Shown piece by piece: positions 4,265 to 61,110 of a stretch of DNA of 64,000 nt. The stretch lies in assembly GCF_988242995.1 (NCBI RefSeq), contig NZ_OZ547043.1; one strand, written 5' to 3'. Made by a program: the position numbers and the translations under genes. The notes under the pieces were generated by a model. That model was not told the DNA's origin. It did no database searches and saw only the letters and a program-made list of their open reading frames with translations. The first letter of the stretch is position 1, and every line of letters begins with the position of its first letter.

Positions 4265-5944
<1,680 letters not shown>

Positions 5945-34808: not shown

Positions 34809-34874
34809 GTTTGGATGCAAGAATGGCCCCCGTGGTGTTGTCAGGTGCATACCTGCAACGTGCGGGGGTTTTCT
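34809..34874 (+). ncRNA. Rdl-family antisense RNA (copy 1); coordinates approximate
   Basis: Plus-strand hairpin cccccgtggtgttgtcaggtgcatacctgcaacgtgcggggg followed by ttttctct, antisense to the ldr leader. Its 5' part differs from copy 2. Confidence 0.5.
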
Positions 34875-35291: not shown

Positions 35292-35357
35292 GTCTAGAGT
35301 CAAGATTAGCCCCCGTGGTGTTGTCAGGTGCATACCTGCAACGTGCGGGGGTTTTCT
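35292..35357 (+). ncRNA. rdlD: RdlD-like antisense RNA (copy 2); coordinates approximate
   Basis: ggtctagagtcaagattagcccccgtggtgttgtcaggtgcatacctgcaacgtgcgggggttttct: hairpin plus U-run, antisense to the ldr leader. Resembles RdlD as I recall it. Confidence 0.55.
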
Positions 35358-37019: not shown

Positions 37020-38024
37020 TTAACGCTGCGGATTTTCATCCTGATCAACAGCAAAACAAGCTACCAGTTGACCGCCGTAGTCTTTTAGCTGCGGCTGCAA
37101 CTGGGTGCAGGGGCCGAAGTGCCGACGACAGCGGGCGTTAAACGCGCAGCCCGGCGGTGGATTGAGCGGGCTTGGCAGTTCACCGGTGAGCTTGATGCGC
37201 TCGCGGCGATCGTCCGGGTTCAGGCGCGGCGTCGCGGAGAGTAGCGCCTGAGTGTACGGATGACGCGGGTTATTGAAGATTTGGTCCTTCGTTCCCTTCT
37301 CCACGCAGCGGCCCAGGTACATCACCATCACTTCATCGGCAATGTGCTCAACCACTGACAGGTCGTGCGAGATAAAGACATAAGACAGCCCCAACTCCTG
37401 CTGCAAATCCATCATCAGATTCAGCACCTGCGCACGCACTGAAACGTCCAGCGCGGAAACCGGTTCATCGGCAATCACCACATCCGGGTCGAGCATCAGA
37501 CCACGGGCAATGGCGATACGCTGACGCTGACCGCCGGAGAACATATGCGGATAGCGGTCATAATGTTCGGTTTTCAGGCCGACTTTCGCCATCATCGACA
37601 GGGCTTTTTCCCGACGCTGTTCTTTGCTTAAGCTGGTATTAATCAGCAGCGGCTCCTCAAGAATTTGCCCGACTTTTTTACGTGGATTCAGCGAACCGTA
37701 AGGGTTCTGGAAGACAATCTGGATTTTCTGCCGACGCAGCTTCTGCGCCTGCGGATCGTGCTTGAGCAGATCCTGCCCCTGGTAATACAGCTCACCGCCG
37801 GTGGGCGTTTCGATCATCGTAAGCAACCGACCGAGGGTAGATTTACCGCAGCCGGATTCACCTACTACCGCCAGCGTTTTGCCACGTTCAAGGTTAAACG
37901 AAACGCCATCCAGCGCCTTCACCAGACGTTCCGGAGCGAACATACCTTTCTTCACCGGATAATGTTTTTTCAGGTCGATAGCCTGCAACAGCGGTTGTTG
38001 CGAGGTGGCCTCATGCGTACTCAT
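37020..38024 (-). CDS. dppF: Dipeptide ABC transporter ATP-binding protein DppF, 334 aa
   Basis: Track [32 protein letters not shown]...; Walker [13 protein letters not shown] signature LSGGQRQR. Confidence 0.96.
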
Positions 38025-39004
38025 AGTGTCGGCCTCCCGGCATCATCAAGTGGGTAATGGCATTTGGACTGACGCCCGTCAGAGAGCATATTCAGCGCCG
38101 GTTCTTCAGCGCGACATCTGTCAGTGGCATAGGGGCAGCGCGGGTTAAGCAGGCAGCCGTTCGGGCGGTCGTACTTACCGGGAACGACACCTGGCAACGA
38201 CGCCAGACGTTCTTTGTCCTGAGCAAATTCCGGCAGCGCACGCAGCAATGCCTGAGTATACGGGTGACGCGGCGCATGGAAGATAGCGTGCGCATCGCCC
38301 GTTTCTACTACCTGGCCTGCATACATCACGATGATTTTATGTGCCGCTTCCGCCACCAGTGCCAGGTCATGAGTGATCAACACCAGCGCCATGTTCTCTT
38401 TCTGCTGTAGCTCCAGCAGTAGTTCAATGATTTGCGCCTGAATGGTCACGTCCAGCGCAGTGGTTGGTTCATCGGCAATCAGCAGCTTTGGCCGACAGGC
38501 AATCGCCATGGCGATCATCACGCGCTGGCTCATGCCGCCGGAAAGCTGATGCGGGTAAACATCCAGACGCGATGCCGGATCGGGAATACCGACCTGATTC
38601 AGCAGGTCAATCGCTCGCTGACGGCGGGTACTTTTGTTGCCGCCCTGATGCACCTTTATCGCTTCCATAATCTGGAAACCCACGGTGTAGCACGGGTTAA
38701 GGCTGGTCATCGGGTCCTGGAAGATCATTGCCACTTCGGCACCCACCAGGTTGCGGCGCTCTTTTTCTGAGATACGCTGTAAATCCTGACCGTTAAACTC
38801 CAGCTTTTCCGCCATTACGCGGCCCGGATAATCAATCAGCCCCATAATCGCCAGCGAACTGACCGATTTACCAGAGCCGGACTCACCCACAATCCCGACC
38901 ACTTCGCCCTGTTTTACGCTGTAGCTGATGCGGTCTACGGCGCGGAACGGTGCGCTTTCGTCGCCGAAATGCACCGATAATTTATCTACATTTAATAACG
39001 CCAT
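38021..39004 (-). CDS. dppD: Dipeptide ABC transporter ATP-binding protein DppD, 327 aa
   Basis: Track [33 protein letters not shown]...; Walker A GESGSGKS; 4-bp overlap with dppF. Confidence 0.96.
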
Positions 39005-39014
39005 CTCGAACCTC

Positions 39015-39917
39015 TTACTGCTTCAGTTTGGGATCGAGCGCGTCACGCAGACCGTCACCCATCAGGTTAAATGCCAGCACCGTCAGCAGGATCGCCAGAC
39101 CCGGGAAGGTCACGACCCACCAGGCGCTTTGCGCGAACTGCAACACATCGGAGAGCATGGTGCCCCACTCCGGCGTTGGCGGCTGCGCCCCCATGCCGAG
39201 GAAACCAAGAGCAGCCATATCGAGAATGGCGTTAGAGAAACCGAGCGACGCCTGAACAATCAGAGGCGCAAGGCAGTTCGGGAAGATGTTAATAAACATC
39301 TGACGCATCGCCCCGGCACCTGCCACGCGAGACGCGGTAACGTAATCGCGATTCACCTCCACCAGCACGGCGGCGCGTGTTAAGCGCACATAGTGCGGCA
39401 AGGCAACGAAGGTCAGCGCCAGCGCGGCGTTACCAATCGACGGGCCGAAAATCGCCACCAGCACCAGTGCCAACAGCAGACTTGGCAGCGCCAGCATGAT
39501 ATCGACCACGCGCATGATGATGTTATCGACCAGGCCGCCGAAGTAACCGGCGATCAGGCCGAGAATAACGCCCATAATCAGCGATAACACAACTACCAGA
39601 CAGCCAACCAGCAGTGACAATCGCGCACCGTACATCAGACGCGACAGCACATCACGGCCTACGTCATCGGTGCCCAGCAAGTGCGCCATGCTGCCGCCTT
39701 CCTGCCAGGCTGGCGGGGCGAGCAGTGCATCGCGGAACTGTTCCGCCGGGTTATAGGGTGCAATCCAGTTGGCAAAGATCGCGATAAACAGCACGATGAC
39801 GACGTAAACCAGCCCGACGACCGCGCCTTTGTTGCGTTTAAAATAGTGCCAGAACTCCTGTAACGGGGTCATCGGCACCGGTGCGCTAATCACTTTATTT
39901 TCAGTAACCTGTGACAT
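39015..39917 (-). CDS. dppC: Dipeptide ABC transporter permease DppC, 300 aa
   Basis: Track [40 protein letters not shown]... Confidence 0.96.
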
Positions 39918-39926
39918 GATGTCCCC

Positions 39927-40946
39927 TTACTTCTTATGACGAATACGCGGGTTCACCACGCCGTACAGCAGATCGACCAGCAAGTTGACGAGGATAATCA
40001 TCGTCGCCACCAGCAATACGCCGCCCTGCACTACCGGATAGTCGCGGCGTTGCAGTGCGTCAATCAACCAGCGCCCCAGACCGGGCCACGAGAAGATGGT
40101 TTCGGTCAGAATCGCCCCCGCCAGCAATGTTCCCACCTGGAGGCCGATAACGGTCACTACCGGCAGCATCGCGTTACGCAGCGCATGGACGATAATCACC
40201 CGCATGCGGGTCAACCCTTTGGCGCGCGCGGTGCGGATATAATCTTCACCCAGCACTTCCAGCATCGAGGAGCGTGTCATACGCACAATGACCGCCAGCG
40301 GGATAGTACCCAGCACAATGGCGGGCAAGATCATATGGGCGACGGCATCGATAAAGTTACCGTCTTCACCCCAGATGGCGGTGTCGATCAGCATAAAACC
40401 GGTTAACGGATTGGAATCATCGAGGAACACCATGTCGCTCACGCGACCGGAGACGGGCGTCAGGTTCCAGTGCACCGAAACCAGCATGATCAGCATCATG
40501 CCCCACCAGAAGATCGGCATTGAATAACCTGTCAGCGCCAGGCCAACCGCCGTGTGATCGAAAATGGAACCGCGTTTAACCGCAGCCAGCACACCAACCG
40601 GAATACCGACTGCCGTAGCAAAAATCATCGCGCAGACGCCAAGTTCCAGCGTGGCCTGAAAGCGCGGCACGAACTCTTCCCATACCGGGATGCGGCTTTT
40701 CATCGAAATGCCTAAATCGCCGTGCATTACGCCCCAAATGTAATGGAGATACTGCTGCCACATCGGTTTATCTAAGCCGAGTTCAGCCAGCAGCTGCGCG
40801 TGACGCTCTGGGGAGATCCCACGCTCGCCCGCCATGATCATCACCGGATCGCCCGGGATCATGTGGACAAAGGCAAATGTGAGAAGGGTAATACCGATAA
40901 ACGTGGGGATGACGAGTCCCAAACGTCGGAGAATAAACTGCAACAT
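39927..40946 (-). CDS. dppB: Dipeptide ABC transporter permease DppB, 339 aa
   Basis: Track ORF 39927..41072 (381 aa); conserved start MLQFILRRLGLVIPTFIGITLLTFAFVHMIPGDP at codon 43 (ATG at 40944-40946). Confidence 0.95.
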   Translation of the reverse strand: MLQFILRRLGLVIPTFIGITLLTFAFVHMIPGDPVMIMAGERGISPERHAQLLAELGLDKPMWQQYLHYIWGVMHGDLGISMKSRIPVWEEFVPRFQATLELGVCAMIFATAVGIPVGVLAAVKRGSIFDHTAVGLALTGYSMPIFWWGMMLIMLVSVHWNLTPVSGRVSDMVFLDDSNPLTGFMLIDTAIWGEDGNFIDAVAHMILPAIVLGTIPLAVIVRMTRSSMLEVLGEDYIRTARAKGLTRMRVIIVHALRNAMLPVVTVIGLQVGTLLAGAILTETIFSWPGLGRWLIDALQRRDYPVVQGGVLLVATMIILVNLLVDLLYGVVNPRIRHKK

Positions 40947-41096
40947 AACCCGGATTCTCTGTAGTGACCCGCAGCCTGGAACTGCGTGTCTGTATTGCTC
41001 ACAAATCAATTCCCGCCCAGGTTGGGCAGGGAATGAAGTATTGCTGCCGGATGGCGCTGCACGCAGAGGCACAGCGCCACCGGGTATGGCTTTTAA

Positions 41097-42704
41097 TTAT
41101 TCGATAGAGACGTTTTCGAAGTGATGTTTGCCTAATGGATCAACCACATAGCCTTTAACTTCTTTGCGTACCGGTTCAAACACGGTGGAGTGAGCGATGA
41201 TCAGTGCCGGAGCCTGATCGTGCATCACCACCTGTGCTTGTTTGTACAGTTCAACGCGCTTGTTGTGGTCGTCGGTGGCACGCGCCGGTTGAATCAGATC
41301 TTCAAACGGTTTGTAGCACCATTTTGAGTAGTTGGAGCCTTGTTCAGAGGCGGCGCAGCTGAACAGGGTGGCGAAGAAGTTATCCGGATCCCCGTTATCG
41401 CCAGTCCAGCCCATCATTACCGTCTGGTGCTCGCCATCTTTCGCACGCTTGAGGTACTCACCCCATTCGTAGGTGACAATTTTGGCCTGCACGCCGACTT
41501 TCGCCCAGTCTGCCTGAATCATCTCTGCCATGCGGCGAGCGTTCGGGTTATACGGACGTTGTACCGGCATTGCCCACAGGTCGATGGAGAAGCCTTTTTC
41601 CAGGCCCGCTTCTTTCAGCAAGGCTTTCGCTTTTTCGGGATCGTAGGTGTAGTCCTGAACGTCGTCGTTATAGCCCCACATGGTTGGCGGGATCAGGTTT
41701 TTCGCTGCCACGCCCGCGCCCTGATAAACCGCTTTGATGATAGCGTCTTTGTTCACCGCGTAGGTCAGAGCCTGGCGAACTTTCACGTCATCAAGTGGTT
41801 TTTTCTGCACGTTATATGAAAGATAGCCGACGTTAAGCCCCGGCATTTCCATCAGGTTGATGGATTTATCCTGCTTCATGCGAGCGATGTCTGCCGGGTT
41901 CGGGTACGGCATCACCTGGCATTCATTCTTCTGCAATTTCGCGTAACGCACGGAAGCATCAGGGGTAATAGAGAAGACCAGCGTATCGATCTGCGGTTTG
42001 GTGCCCCAGTAGCCATCAAACGCTTTGTAGCGGATACGGGAATCTTTTTGATACTGCTGTAACTGGAACGGACCGGTGCCGATTGGGTTGAGGTCCAGTT
42101 TTTCCGGCGTACCGGCTTTCATCATCGCGTCAGCATATTCTTTTGACAGAATAGAGGCGAAGTCCATTGCCAGATCCGCGAGGAACGGCGCTTCCGGGCG
42201 AGTCAGCACGAACTGAACGGTGTTATCGTCCACCTTTTTCACTTCGCTGATCAGCTCCGGCAAGCCCATGCCTTCGAAGTATTCGTAGCTGCCGCCAGAG
42301 ACTTTATGGTACGGGTTTTGCGCGTTTTTCTGACGATCGAACGAGAACACCACGTCATCGGCGTTCAGTTCGCGCGTCGGTTTGAATTCTTTGTTGTCGT
42401 GCCACTTCACACCTTTACGCAGATGGAAGGTATAGGTTTTTCCGTCTTCGCTGACTTCCCACTTTTCAGCGAGGCCCGGGATTACTTCGGTGGTGCCGAT
42501 TTTAAATTCAACCAGGCGGTTATAAAGCGGCACGGAAGAGGCGTCATAGGTGGTACCGGAGGTAAACAGCTGCGGGTTAAACCCTTCCGGAGATCCTTCT
42601 GAGCAATAAACCAGAGTTTTAGCCTGAACACTTGCTGCGACGGTCATAGCCACCAGGCTGAGACCAAGCTTCAGCATCCCTGACTTTTTCAAGGAAATAC
42701 GCAT
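41097..42704 (-). CDS. dppA: Periplasmic dipeptide-binding protein DppA, 535 aa
   Basis: Track ORF MRISLKKSGMLKLGLSLVAMTVAASVQAKTLVYCSEGSPEGFNPQLF... with signal peptide. Confidence 0.96.
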   Translation of the reverse strand: MRISLKKSGMLKLGLSLVAMTVAASVQAKTLVYCSEGSPEGFNPQLFTSGTTYDASSVPLYNRLVEFKIGTTEVIPGLAEKWEVSEDGKTYTFHLRKGVKWHDNKEFKPTRELNADDVVFSFDRQKNAQNPYHKVSGGSYEYFEGMGLPELISEVKKVDDNTVQFVLTRPEAPFLADLAMDFASILSKEYADAMMKAGTPEKLDLNPIGTGPFQLQQYQKDSRIRYKAFDGYWGTKPQIDTLVFSITPDASVRYAKLQKNECQVMPYPNPADIARMKQDKSINLMEMPGLNVGYLSYNVQKKPLDDVKVRQALTYAVNKDAIIKAVYQGAGVAAKNLIPPTMWGYNDDVQDYTYDPEKAKALLKEAGLEKGFSIDLWAMPVQRPYNPNARRMAEMIQADWAKVGVQAKIVTYEWGEYLKRAKDGEHQTVMMGWTGDNGDPDNFFATLFSCAASEQGSNYSKWCYKPFEDLIQPARATDDHNKRVELYKQAQVVMHDQAPALIIAHSTVFEPVRKEVKGYVVDPLGKHHFENVSIE

Positions 42705-43467
42705 TATTCTGCTCCAATTGTGATGTTTGTTGTTTTAACCCTTTGCAGTGGGTTGTCGCTGCCTGACCTTTTTTGTTTTTTGCCCGGTCGGGTCAACGTT
42801 ATGAGGTGGGGATGCCGTACTAATTAACATCAGTGTAACAGTGCGGATCCTCCATAAAATGCCCCTCGTGACCTACAATCTGTCAACAGAATGTGAAAAC
42901 GTCAATACAGCCAACCGGGATTTACACCAACGGTGAGAATCCACAAACAAAGATTAAAAAAACTTCAAACAGCTATTTGCAGCAGAGAAATTTGTGCTAC
43001 TCCAACATGACCAGAACAATCAGCTTAATATTTAGCAACAATTGGTGATTAAGTTTTATGCATTTAGTGAAAAAAATCTGAGGAAAAGGTGGATATCTGA
43101 GCGATTAATACCATGAACGCTAAAACGCACAGGGGAAAATGCCAGCGCCAGCCATAAGTAACGCAAAAAAAGATTTAAGCAAATATAAAAAAAGACAATG
43201 GTTTCTGTCACAAATCCGTTAATGGATAGTGAGATATGGGGCGCAAATTTGGCAGGGAAATATGTGGTGTGTTGCCGTTTAGATCGGATAAGACGGATAC
43301 GCTGTATCCCACAATGAGTGCGGTGCCGAATTTGGTCGGTGCCAGAGGATTACTCGCCACTTCGTGGCTCGCCCTGCGGGCCGTTGCTGGCGCAACGTTC
43401 TCTCGCTTCGCTCGAGTCGAACCTCCCTGCCCCCGGAGGTTCTCATCCTCTTCAGGCCGCAGAAAGC

Positions 43468-43501: not shown

Positions 43502-43578
<77 letters not shown>

Positions 43579-53219: not shown

Positions 53220-53930
53220 TTATTGGGTTGCAGTAACTGCTGTAGTCCAGGCCTGATTAAACGCCTGATGCTGTGCCGGTAATGGCGCAATCAGTTTGTT
53301 ATATTCACTTGCCTGCTGTGACGTCGGGAACTGGATGCCATTTGCGACAAAGCTCACCTGAGTACCTTGCTGAGCAATGTAGTCTCCAACCATCACCAGT
53401 TGTTGCGTGAAAGTTTGTGCCGCCGGAATCAACGGTTGCAATGCATCAGCTGGCGTCGTTACCACTTTGGTGAATGCCTGATCAAAGACCGGTTTCAGGT
53501 CATCGCTCTGTTTTAGCGCAGAGTGCGCAGCATCGGCCTGCAACTTCGCATTTTGCAGCTGTTGCGCCAGTACGCCCAGAGAACCGTTCATTTCACGCAG
53601 TGGGCCGCTTTGCGTAACGTAATCCTGCGGTACGCGAATTGCGTTAACGCTGTCTACGACCGGGCGCAGACCGGAATCCATCGCCTGATTCACCTGCTGA
53701 GAATAACCATACAGAATCGCGTAATCAGAGACAAAAGGACCAAATTGTTTTTTCTGATCGGCAGTCAGGGTAGGTAGACGTTCACCGCTACGCATCACTG
53801 TATTCTGCAGGAAGTCGATAAACGCTTTACGCTGATCGCCTTCTTTATCAAAACACCCACTCAGGCTAACTACCATTAATAACGCCGCAAGAGGCGCAAA
53901 CCAGCGAGAGCAGGACTTTCCTGTCGCCAT
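53220..53930 (-). CDS. yiaF: Putative lipoprotein YiaF, 236 aa
   Basis: Track ORF 53220..54050; start at MATGKSCSRWFAPLAALLMVVSLSGCFDK (lipobox LSGC), ATG at 53928-53930. Confidence 0.88.
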   Translation of the reverse strand: MATGKSCSRWFAPLAALLMVVSLSGCFDKEGDQRKAFIDFLQNTVMRSGERLPTLTADQKKQFGPFVSDYAILYGYSQQVNQAMDSGLRPVVDSVNAIRVPQDYVTQSGPLREMNGSLGVLAQQLQNAKLQADAAHSALKQSDDLKPVFDQAFTKVVTTPADALQPLIPAAQTFTQQLVMVGDYIAQQGTQVSFVANGIQFPTSQQASEYNKLIAPLPAQHQAFNQAWTTAVTATQ

Positions 53931-54363
53931 TTTCTTACTCCTTTCACCCAAAAAAAGCGCACAACGACACACGCGTGTCTGACGTGACAAGGATAGTCCA
54001 GGACAGGCTTGCAGGATACCCTTTCTACGTAATCTTCCTGGTAAAATCATGGAGAAAATGAAACAAGGTTAATTTGTTGTTTCATTGTTAAAAAATGATG
54101 GTGCCGTTGCTTTTTTTGTAGCCAGAGATTTACGCCTTCGCAGAACATTAGATTTTCGAAATCTTTACAAACCGGGAGTGGTAAGAGATATATCGGCATT
54201 TATCAGATCGTTAGGTGGCTATAAGTCACGCTAAATGACTGGCTGAATCGAATCATAGCCAGAGCATGCCCTGACTTCACCCCGCTGTGTCTGCTTTTCC
54301 CGACTATTCTTAATGAGCTTCGATGCAATTCACGATCCCGCAGTGTGATTTGAGGAGTTTTCA

Positions 54364-54654: not shown

Positions 54655-54775
54655 ACTTTTATCCACTTTATTGCTGTTTACGGTCCTGATGACAGGACCG
54701 TTTTCCAACCGATTAATCATAAATATGAAAAATAATTGTTGCATCACCCGCCAATGCGTGGCTTAATGCACATCA

Positions 54776-54934
54776 ACGGTTTGACGTACAGACCATTAAA
54801 GCAGTGTAGTAAGGCAAGTCCCTTCAAGAGTTATCGTTGATACCCCTCGTAGTGCACATTCCTTTAACGCTTCAAAATCTGTAAAGCACGCCATATCGCC
54901 GAAAGGCACACTTAATTATTAAAGGTAATACACT
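54776..54934 (+). promoter_or_regulatory. cspA long 5' UTR (cold-box / RNA thermosensor leader)
   Basis: The leader acggtttgacgtacagaccattaaagcagtgtagtaaggcaagtcccttcaagagttatcgttgatacccctcgtagtgcacattcc... precedes the cspA ATG by about 159 nt. A -35/-10 pair (ttgcat ... gcttaat) and an AT-rich UP element lie just upstream. Confidence 0.8.
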
Positions 54935-55147
54935 ATGTCCGGTAAAATGACTGGTATCGTAAAATGGTTCAACGCTGACAAAGGCTTCGGCTTCATCACT
55001 CCTGACGATGGCTCTAAAGACGTGTTCGTACACTTCTCTGCTATCCAGAACGATGGTTACAAATCTCTGGACGAAGGTCAGAAAGTGTCCTTCACCATCG
55101 AAAGCGGCGCTAAAGGCCCGGCAGCTGGTAACGTAACCAGCCTGTAA
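54935..55147 (+). CDS. cspA: Major cold-shock protein CspA, 70 aa
   Basis: Track [73 protein letters not shown]; RNP1 motif KGFGFI. Confidence 0.97.
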
Positions 55148-55173
55148 TCTCTGCTTAAAAGCACAGAATCTAA

Positions 55174-55208
55174 GATCCCTGCCATTTGGCGGGGATTTTT
55201 TTATTTGT
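55174..55208 (+). terminator. cspA intrinsic terminator
   Basis: atccctgccatttggcggggat followed by ttttttta. Confidence 0.7.
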
Positions 55209-55334: not shown

Positions 55335-55487
55335 TTACTCTTTCAAATTGCAGGCTAAAAATGCCGCCAGCTCATAACTCCCCTGTTTAATATGCAATTC
55401 ACACAGTGAATCTCTTATCATCCAGGTGAAAAATAAAAGCGTGAAACAAATCACTATTAAAGAAAGTAATCTATATTTCTGCGGCAT
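55335..55487 (-). CDS. hokA: Hok-family type I toxin HokA, 50 aa
   Basis: Track ORF 55335..55547 (70 aa); the last 50 codons MPQKYRLLSLIVICFTLLFFTWMIRDSLCELHIKQGSYELAAFLACNLKE are the Hok toxin. The in-frame upstream extension probably covers the mok/leader region. Confidence 0.85.
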   Translation of the reverse strand: MPQKYRLLSLIVICFTLLFFTWMIRDSLCELHIKQGSYELAAFLACNLKE

Positions 55488-55766
55488 TCCCAGCCCCCTA
55501 TGTTGATTTCCAACGAGTAAGAGGCTAACCTTATGGTGTTCAGGCATAGGGTAGCCTCACTTTGATTTATAGTCAGGTGGGGCTTTTCTCTGTCTGCCTT
55601 TCGGTGAATACCTGAGACAAACAGTCTCAAGCACCCGCAGCTATTCTAGCTTAATAAGTTCGTTTCTTCTCCTTGATATAATCCTAAAAAAATCTCATAA
55701 AATTAATATATGAGACAATCTTTATTCAGCAGAAGATTATTAAAGGTTGCTCTATTATTTAGCGAT

Positions 55767-60405: not shown

Positions 60406-61110
60406 AAATGCGCCTATAAGGCTCTCTTACCAGCCGCGCCCTAACAGGCGCACACGATCTGACATTTGCATCCAACTTCGTTACTTACGGCCCGTAAACG
60501 GGCTGCCCGGATAGGGAATCGATAACTGCTCTCCCATTTTATCCTCTTCAAGCTGGTGCTTTATGTAATCCTGTATCTTCGCCGTGTTCTTACCCACTGT
60601 ATCGACGTAGTACCCTCTGCACCAGAACTCCCTGTTCCTGTATTTGAATTTCAAATCACCAAACTGCTCGTAAAGCATCAGACTGCTTTTCCCTTTCAGA
60701 TATCCCATAAAGCCGGATACGCTCATTTTGGGCGGGATCTCCACAAGCATATGGATATAATCTGCACAGCATTCAGCTTCCAGAATCCGTACGCTTTTCC
60801 ACTCACACAGCTTTCTCAAAATACTGCCTATTGCTCTACGCTTCTCTCTGTAGAACACCTGTCTTCGGTATTTTGGCGCAAAAACTATGTGATATTTACA
60901 GTTCCATCGGGTGTGCGCTAAGCTCTTTTCGTTCCCCATTGGGACCCCCTTTTGATTTCTTGTTTGACACTTGCAGTTGCCAGACCGCAAAGTGTTTTAA
61001 CAAATCAAAAGGGGTTTTAATAACTGGCTCAAAGCTGAAAGCTTTCCGGAACCCCCAGCCTAGCTGGGGGTTTTCTGTGCACAATAAAGGCCCGGTCACA
61101 TTGGACTGAC
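60405..61110 (-). mobile_element. IS200-like insertion sequence (IS200/IS605 family); boundaries approximate within about 30 bp
   Basis: Single Y1 (HuH) transposase gene with about 75 bp after the stop and about 170 bp before the start. The upstream end carries the characteristic perfect hairpin acccccagcctagctgggggtt. Total about 0.7 kb, as expected for IS200; no terminal inverted repeats, consistent with the family. Confidence 0.8.
60481..60939 (-). CDS. tnpA: IS200-family transposase TnpA (Y1 HuH transposase), 152 aa
   Basis: Track ORF 60481..60990; conserved start MGNEKSLAHTRWNCKYHIVFAPKYRRQVFY; HuH motif (HMLVEI) and catalytic Tyr region (RGYYVDTVG) present. Confidence 0.92.
   Translation of the reverse strand: MGNEKSLAHTRWNCKYHIVFAPKYRRQVFYREKRRAIGSILRKLCEWKSVRILEAECCADYIHMLVEIPPKMSVSGFMGYLKGKSSLMLYEQFGDLKFKYRNREFWCRGYYVDTVGKNTAKIQDYIKHQLEEDKMGEQLSIPYPGSPFTGRK

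Follow-up and report, generated by a model that had tools for sequence, protein, structure and literature searches.

The spacer between dppA and dppB ends in a conserved 62-nt dppB leader, composed of an A/U linker, a 10-nt box, a hairpin of fixed size (HP3) and a weak Shine-Dalgarno (SD) region; the leader has no Rfam entry. The box is perfectly complementary to RyhB, and we consider it on balance probable that the spacer as a whole combines several post-transcriptional control elements and frees dppA expression from that of dppBCDF, with RyhB acting at the box.

The window, the whole stretch of DNA analyzed here, is 64,000 nt long (NCBI RefSeq assembly GCF_988242995.1, contig NZ_OZ547043.1). 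The identity of the region to Escherichia coli is 99.6%, and the region is present in 5422 of 5426 complete genomes. All features of the dpp locus lie on the minus strand (Table 1), and dppF lies further downstream of dppD. An earlier reading of this DNA made from the letters alone (the sequence-only reading) had reported a 150-bp gap between dppA and dppB, the coordinates of which are exact.

Table 1. Features of the dpp locus (window coordinates)
Feature	Position	Strand	Size, score or basis
dppA, periplasmic dipeptide-binding protein gene; upstream cistron, proposed to be spared	41097..42704	minus	NCBIfam NF043070 equivalog, 1178 bits, full length
dppB	39927..40946	minus	NCBIfam equivalog
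dppB, dppC, dppD, translocator genes; cistrons proposed to be repressed	38021..40946	minus	NCBIfam equivalogs
dppA-dppB spacer	40947..41096	minus (dpp sense)	150 nt
HP1, 15-bp GC-rich hairpin CCGGUGGCGCUGUGC/GCAGCGCCAUCCGG	41047..41083	minus	-26.9 kcal/mol
Equivalent of K-12 RNA 3' end 3705889 (A of ...CCGGCA-3')	41045	minus	offset from dppB start and printed sequence agree
HP2, hairpin AUUCCCUGCCC-AAC-CUGGGCGGGAAU	41009..41034	minus	-15.6 kcal/mol
Conserved 62-nt dppB leader (A/U linker, box, HP3, SD region)	40947..41008	minus	covariance model R1, 78.3 bits
Box UGUGAGCAAU, candidate RyhB pairing site	40994..41003	minus	43-52 nt upstream of dppB AUG
HP3, 25-nt hairpin GAC-ACGCAGU-UCC-AGGCUGCGG-GUC	40966..40990	minus	-11.2 kcal/mol; unlisted in the sequence-only reading
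Weak SD-like GAGAAU within invariant AGAGAAUCCGGGUU, preceding dppB AUG (40946-40944)	40954..40959	minus	alignment

Spacer structure and the dppA 3' end

The spacer of strain K-12 is 307 nt long, the extra 157 nt lying immediately 3' of the dppA stop codon. This insert comprises two inverted REPs around an L-motif (K-12 locus positions 1429-1585) and is found in a median of 6 places per genome, which makes it a dispersed repeat and therefore a BIME/RIP-type element. The short-allele junction (window 41084-41096), counted with a 43-nt junction query, was found in 2166 of 5426 E. coli genomes (40%), and the remaining genomes carry the 157-nt repeat. The BIME/RIP copy of K-12 and of ~60% of E. 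coli genomes is accordingly absent from the window. From HP1 onward the short and K-12 alleles are collinear and nearly identical.

Folded as dpp-sense RNA, the spacer reaches -62.3 kcal/mol, against -47.8 ± 4.0 kcal/mol for 200 dinucleotide shuffles (z = -3.62), none of which (0/200) folded as well. Both inverted repeats picked out in the sequence-only reading, ggcgctg at 41053-41059 with cagcgcc at 41072-41078 and cccaggttgggcagg at 41016-41030, are present, and the spacer forms three hairpins where that reading had seen two. Those two are real and belong to the hypervariable portion; the constrained box and HP3 had been missed. An A/U linker, UGAUU (41008-41004), follows directly 3' of HP2. 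Searches with Rfam covariance models returned nothing relevant at E <= 10 in 40700-41400 and, at gathering score over the whole window, zero matches inside the spacer. Elsewhere in the window, Rfam matches comprise two rdlD antitoxin RNAs ~480 nt apart (34809-34874 and 35292-35357, plus strand), a cspA thermoregulator (54775-55202, plus), sok (55485-55636, minus), STnc490 (60949-61072, minus) and RtT (43333-43467, minus), which adjoins a tRNA (43505-43578, minus).

HP1 resembles a REP in being a GC-rich imperfect palindrome of ~35-40 nt in a transcribed intergenic region. The dispersed copies typical of REP/BIME elements were not seen: at word size 11, the median number of HP1 places in 5421 E. 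coli genomes was one. The HP1 flanks are AUAC and CA, not CTAC/GTAG, so that the REP foot is missing, and the E. coli REP consensus had no match within 3 mismatches anywhere in the window. Inverted REP pairs (GTAGGCCGG...GCGCCAYCCGGCA) occupy the same position in Trabulsiella, Citrobacter, Leclercia and others, and the 3' arm of HP1 matches their REP tail. Because it is single-copy, is without the foot and has a 3' arm matching the tail of these co-positioned pairs, we read HP1 as a REP remnant, descended from a REP copy.

The HP1 sequence of K-12 is the same as that in the window. Term-seq of K-12 (Adams 2021, PMC7815308, supplementary file 1) places an RNA 3' end at 3705889 (minus) in all three growth conditions, 2 nt past the HP1 stem; no further 3' end is listed in the spacer, and none at HP2, of this long-allele strain (PMC7815308). 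DirectRNA-seq coverage was 234 upstream and 64 downstream of the junction without bicyclomycin (BCM) and 250 and 141, respectively, with BCM (PMC7815308). The drop from 234 to 64, ~3.7-fold, means that dppA RNA is more abundant than dppB RNA in K-12. A Rho termination region was mapped in K-12 with its peak at 3705667 (window ~40823), 123 nt inside dppB (score 2.06, p = 3.6e-5; PMC7815308), and Rho accounts for roughly half of the dppA/dppB coverage difference.

These data bear on the function that the sequence-only reading had proposed for the structure, which was either a partial terminator or an RNA stabilizer giving more binding-protein RNA than permease RNA. The inequality is borne out by the K-12 coverage at the junction, and the 3' end at HP1 in three conditions supports the stabilizer. 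The partial (intrinsic) terminator is not supported: HP1 is without a U tract, and HP2 is terminator-like only at chance level, with no 3' end listed there. A dppA message that ends at a hairpin without a U tract fits an exonuclease-resistant stabilizer, not an intrinsic terminator, and HP1 likely protects the 3' end of a dppA-only mRNA.

Two further observations concern RNA ends and repeats at this locus. A very abundant Term-seq 3' end of K-12 at 3707800 (window ~42799), 95 nt upstream of the dppA start in the GcvB-targeted 5' UTR, indicates premature termination or processing there; TIER-seq lists only the dppA 5' UTR. The heptamer GCAAUAC occurs twice in the E. coli spacer, at 41038-41044 and, within the box, at 40992-40998; the first copy lies just past the mapped 3' end (GGCA↓GCAAUACUUC) and is not conserved in other genera.

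Conservation of the dppB leader

The comparative set comprised 80 dppA loci from 80 Enterobacteriaceae species, and the spacer was recovered from 79 of the 80, with lengths of 106-333 nt. The 5' part of the spacer is unrelated between genera and consists of REP pairs, CCCTCTCCC/GGGAGAGGG hairpins or ERIC-like inserts. Almost all of the 78 distinct spacers have a stable hairpin (median -14 kcal/mol) whose end lies 0-17 nt short of the box; the sequence of HP2 is variable, and a hairpin occupies its position in nearly every species.

The leader module, in contrast to this 5' part, is found once per locus across the 80-species set, and its covariance model has a single match in the 64-kb window and one per locus in related loci. 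Its parts stand in the order (A)UUUGUGAGCAAUACA, HP3 (GAC, variable stem and loop, GUC), AYUASAGAGAAUCCGGGUU and AUG, and its length ranges from 58 to 64 nt (58, 60, 61, 62, 63 or 64). Within an alignment of 67 distinct Enterobacteriaceae modules TGAGCAAT is invariant, and 5386 of 5426 E. coli genomes share, without any difference, a 40-nt stretch that contains the box. Outside the Enterobacteriaceae, Serratia, Erwinia, Pantoea and Dickeya have both box and hairpin; Yersinia has an imperfect box (UGUGAGCCAU), Moellerella and Photorhabdus have a partial one, and Xenorhabdus has none. The literature yielded nothing specific on a described dppA-dppB element.

HP3 keeps its structure and its size (25-26 nt) while its stem sequence varies. 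The model-fitted alignment has 87.3% of HP3 cells paired, against 73.6 ± 0.9% in shuffles (0/500 as high), with compensatory changes at 9 of 11 pairs and 97 double-sided changes versus 33 in shuffles; slid controls are 25-46% paired. An alignment-free anchored count of the pairing agrees with these values. MAFFT-based RNAalifold under-called HP3, the variable stem being misaligned, and the anchored count and model-fitted alignment were used instead. The many G.U pairs in HP3 assign the structure to the sense RNA strand.

The GAGAAU of E. coli is predicted to pair with AUUCUC (40929-40934, dppB codons 5-6), enclosing the start codon (P unpaired, 0.1-0.2). Sequestration of the SD by codons 5-6 was rejected as a conserved feature, since the Ile codon varies in other species and the pairing is thus not conserved. 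Buttiauxella agrestis (locus positions 4275-4420) carries a ~125-nt ERIC-like element (..CAGGAGCTTACTTGAGTAAGTGACTGGGGTGA..) in the HP3 loop, with the box and SD flank intact, and similar ERIC-like inserts are found in the Serratia and Yersinia spacers. The division of the spacer into a repeat-derived, fast-evolving half and a constrained half is useful for annotation, since some DppB entries probably reach too far upstream, and for engineering of dpp expression, even without RyhB.

RyhB complementarity and alternative explanations

The box pairs with RyhB nt 41-50, AUUGCUCACA, through 10 of 10 Watson-Crick pairs (RyhB sequence from the K-12 record), the seed that RyhB uses on sodB. The core duplex is predicted at -14.7 kcal/mol, or ~-10.3 kcal/mol net of opening costs (3.3 kcal/mol for the box and 1.1 kcal/mol for the RyhB seed), and the site is predicted to be accessible. 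RyhB is an outlier among 14 K-12 Hfq sRNAs: the 13 others (GcvB, OmrA/B, Spot 42, CyaR, FnrS, MicF, ArcZ, SgrS, ChiX, RybB, MicA and DsrA) reach <=6 nt of complementarity on the box segment and were rejected as box partners. Among 2000 shuffles of RyhB, 2 gave a match of 10 nt. The window holds 2 RyhB-seed 10-mer complements, versus 3.3 expected; at this chance frequency complementarity alone proves nothing, and the argument for RyhB therefore rests on coincidences, among them that the match falls on an invariant, accessible element. The box is the only 10-mer match on the sense strand in the window. The other 10-mer (TGAGCAATGT, 53371-53380, plus) is antisense to an ORF (53220..54050, minus) and so is probably due to chance. 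Separately, CyaR has an 8-nt perfect complement, CAUAACCC, to the invariant GGGUUAUG (40944-40951), overlapping the dppB start codon; with 14 sRNAs tested, chance would be expected to give about one match of this kind.

Several published data sets bear on RyhB control. Beauchene 2015 (PMC4676285) names "dppBCDF," without dppA, among the operons whose RNA is decreased by RyhB (fur versus fur ryhB, anaerobic), and describes dppBCDF as only indirectly Fur regulated, i.e., without a Fur ChIP-seq peak. E. coli DppD and DppF have one [4Fe-4S] cluster each, essential for complex assembly, the role of which is said to need investigation still (PMC12136057), and chemoproteomics also flagged DppD as an Fe-S protein. 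In Salmonella exposed to iron-restricting egg white, lowered dppB, dppD and dppF were already evident at the first time point, ahead of dppA, whose change was not significant then. Among the entries listed in the accessible Hfq-CLASH tables, which derive from LB cultures, there is no RyhB-dppB chimera. In aerobic RyhB ribosome profiling (PMC4666370, supplementary file 5), dppB-F are absent among the significant genes; dppA occupancy changed by -0.97, the sign of RyhB-activated genes, and a dppA 5' fusion failed validation (PMC4666370). The -0.97 change is ambiguous and would fit an effect exerted downstream of dppA.

Much of this evidence could also be read without RyhB, as a spacer that is only a stabilizer or attenuator joined to an ordinary translation-initiation region. 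HP1 and HP2 would then protect dppA mRNA, the box would be a standby, S1, enhancer, RNase E or Hfq site for basal dppB translation, and the complementarity to RyhB would be coincidental. We judge this reading rather unlikely, although the end mapped at HP1, together with a coverage drop partly due to Rho, accounts for more dppA than dppB without any sRNA, RyhB-seed 10-mers occur at chance rate, the listed entries of the accessible CLASH tables hold no chimeras and dppB-F are silent in aerobic ribosome profiling. The linker GA↓UUUG would also suit RNase E, whose preference was reportedly found by Chao 2017 to be RN↓WUU. The same reading leaves unexplained the RyhB dependence of dppBCDF, not dppA; it calls for an 8-mer invariant across families, which an enhancer or standby site rarely needs; and it does not account for RyhB as a clear outlier among the 14 sRNAs. 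HP2 followed by AAUUGAUUUGUG might instead work as a leaky intrinsic terminator and so determine how much dppBCDF RNA is made relative to dppA, and it was indeed flagged by a pattern scan (8 pairs, 6 of them G-C, with the tail AATTGATTTG) and has counterparts in almost all species, where a stable hairpin followed by an A/U-rich linker is found here. This is improbable, however: the region holds 2 terminator-like sites versus 1.0 ± 1.0 expected, the tail is a poor U tract, the linker is just 0-3 nt in several species, and K-12 Term-seq has no 3' end at HP2 under any condition.

The box might act as DNA, either within an internal dppBCDF promoter or as a transcription factor site, as TGTGA resembles a CRP half-site and both it and a -35-like hexamer, TTGTGA, can be read within the box. 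We regard this as very improbable, because the promoter scan gave 0 sigma-70-like sites versus 0.5 expected, a second CRP half-site is missing, and the invariant core is TGAGCAAT, not TGTGA; the adjacent HP3 moreover covaries with G.U pairs that are workable only in sense RNA, and dppBCDF is under indirect Fur control, without a Fur ChIP-seq peak, in Beauchene 2015. We give next to no credence to a coding spacer, whether a DppB N-terminal extension or a small peptide. An in-frame GTG ORF does run from within HP1 (39927..41072, minus, 381 aa), and some database DppB entries are 355-359 aa long, probably with mis-called start codons; but the upstream part of the spacer is unrelated between genera, the alignment to the NCBIfam DppB model (residues 1-339 to 1-339) begins with the ATG at 40946, and variation tracks base-pairing, not codons. 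Module lengths that differ by non-multiples of three exclude a coding extension of dppB.

Proposed control and comparison with known systems

In the reading that we favor, with RyhB acting at the box of a composite spacer, full-length dppABCDF RNA would be cut or terminated 3' of dppA, partly via Rho early in poorly translated dppB, and 3'-to-5' decay would halt at the very stable, REP-derived HP1 to leave an abundant dppA-only mRNA. This part follows the published K-12 3'-end and coverage data, which demonstrate both an RNA end at HP1 and Rho polarity. The dppB leader presents the single-stranded box UGUGAGCAAU, the fixed-size HP3 and the weak SD region, an anatomy shown here along with the conservation of the module, the covariation of HP3 and the complementarity; as the ends of a hairpin lie together, HP3 would set the box near the ribosome-binding site. 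Upon iron starvation, RyhB with Hfq would pair with the box; the duplex would prevent standby binding or initiation by the 30S subunit, bring in RNase E, or both, and Rho polarity and decay of dppBCDF would rise, with dppA shielded by HP1. A [4Fe-4S] cluster is required in DppD and in DppF but not in DppA, which would give this control an iron-sparing logic. We infer the RyhB step from the complementarity, the conservation and one published transcriptome result.

More broadly, and with confidence a little short of even, we suggest that the dppB leader is a previously undescribed and order-wide cis-regulatory motif, whose hairpin of fixed size keeps a distal site for RyhB close up to the ribosome-binding site. 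Iron sparing would in that case shut a peptide/heme ABC translocator with [4Fe-4S] ATPases, and the binding protein, which is also a chemoreceptor ligand, would still be made. Several points speak against the RyhB step: its position 43-52 nt before the AUG puts the box beyond the range usual for direct ribosome occlusion; outside the Enterobacteriaceae and Erwiniaceae the box is incompletely conserved; the entries listed in the accessible CLASH tables (LB cultures) hold no chimera, and aerobic ribosome profiling has no dppB-F signal; and it is not obviously adaptive to repress a permease that can import heme in iron starvation. An effect of RyhB binding on SD accessibility was also considered and rejected, blocking of the box causing no predicted change. 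If the RyhB step is true, it would supply a mapped site and a mechanism for a dppBCDF effect known to date from a single transcriptome list, would explain physiologically why DppD and DppF carry the clusters recently discovered in them, and would define a small testable motif (box, hairpin and weak SD) that is Enterobacterales-wide and without an Rfam entry.

Several known systems resemble parts of this arrangement. REP/BIME elements reportedly stabilize mRNA at malE-malF and hisJ-hisQ of ABC importers (Newbury/Higgins 1987). The dpp spacer likewise has a GC-rich palindrome after an abundant binding-protein gene, with a hairpin-protected end and more binding-protein mRNA than permease mRNA; unlike those stabilizers, HP1 is present in one copy, as a remnant that lacks the GTAG/CTAC foot. 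SroC (PMC4474525) derives from the gltI-gltJ spacer, which similarly lies between importer binding-protein and permease genes, holds an sRNA-interacting sequence and is linked to the Hfq network; SroC is a released fragment that sponges GcvB. At dpp, because the mapped 3' end precedes the box, the stable dppA fragment does not include the box, which would act in cis on dppB.

Repression from distal sites is exerted by IstR-1 at the tisB standby site, GcvB at a C/A-rich enhancer of gltI and Spot 42 at sdhC. Like these, the candidate site in the dppB leader is a single-stranded stretch next to structure, some tens of nucleotides before the start codon; it differs in the fixed-size hairpin between site and SD, and its standby or Hfq role is putative. 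At chiPQ, ChiX enhances Rho-dependent intra-operon polarity. The dpp operon shares with chiPQ a long untranslated stretch and a weakly translated downstream gene, with a Rho region 123 nt into dppB in K-12, whereas enhancement of dppB Rho termination by RyhB, unlike that by ChiX at chiPQ, is a proposal.

The favored reading parallels iscRSUA, where RyhB induces differential degradation (Desnoyers et al. 2009, as summarized in PMC11138216). The iscRSUA mRNA has its RyhB site between a spared upstream cistron and repressed downstream Fe-S-related cistrons, which is also the arrangement at dpp, where the pairing is predicted, and in both the spared cistron is followed by a stable structure that preserves it (probably so at dpp). 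The iscRSUA site overlaps the iscS ribosome-binding site, whereas the dpp box sits further upstream, at 43-52 nt, and a conserved hairpin intervenes. Our best reading is that dpp control is of the iscRSUA-like discoordinate kind, and, if the RyhB step is true, dpp would be a second case of such operon control.
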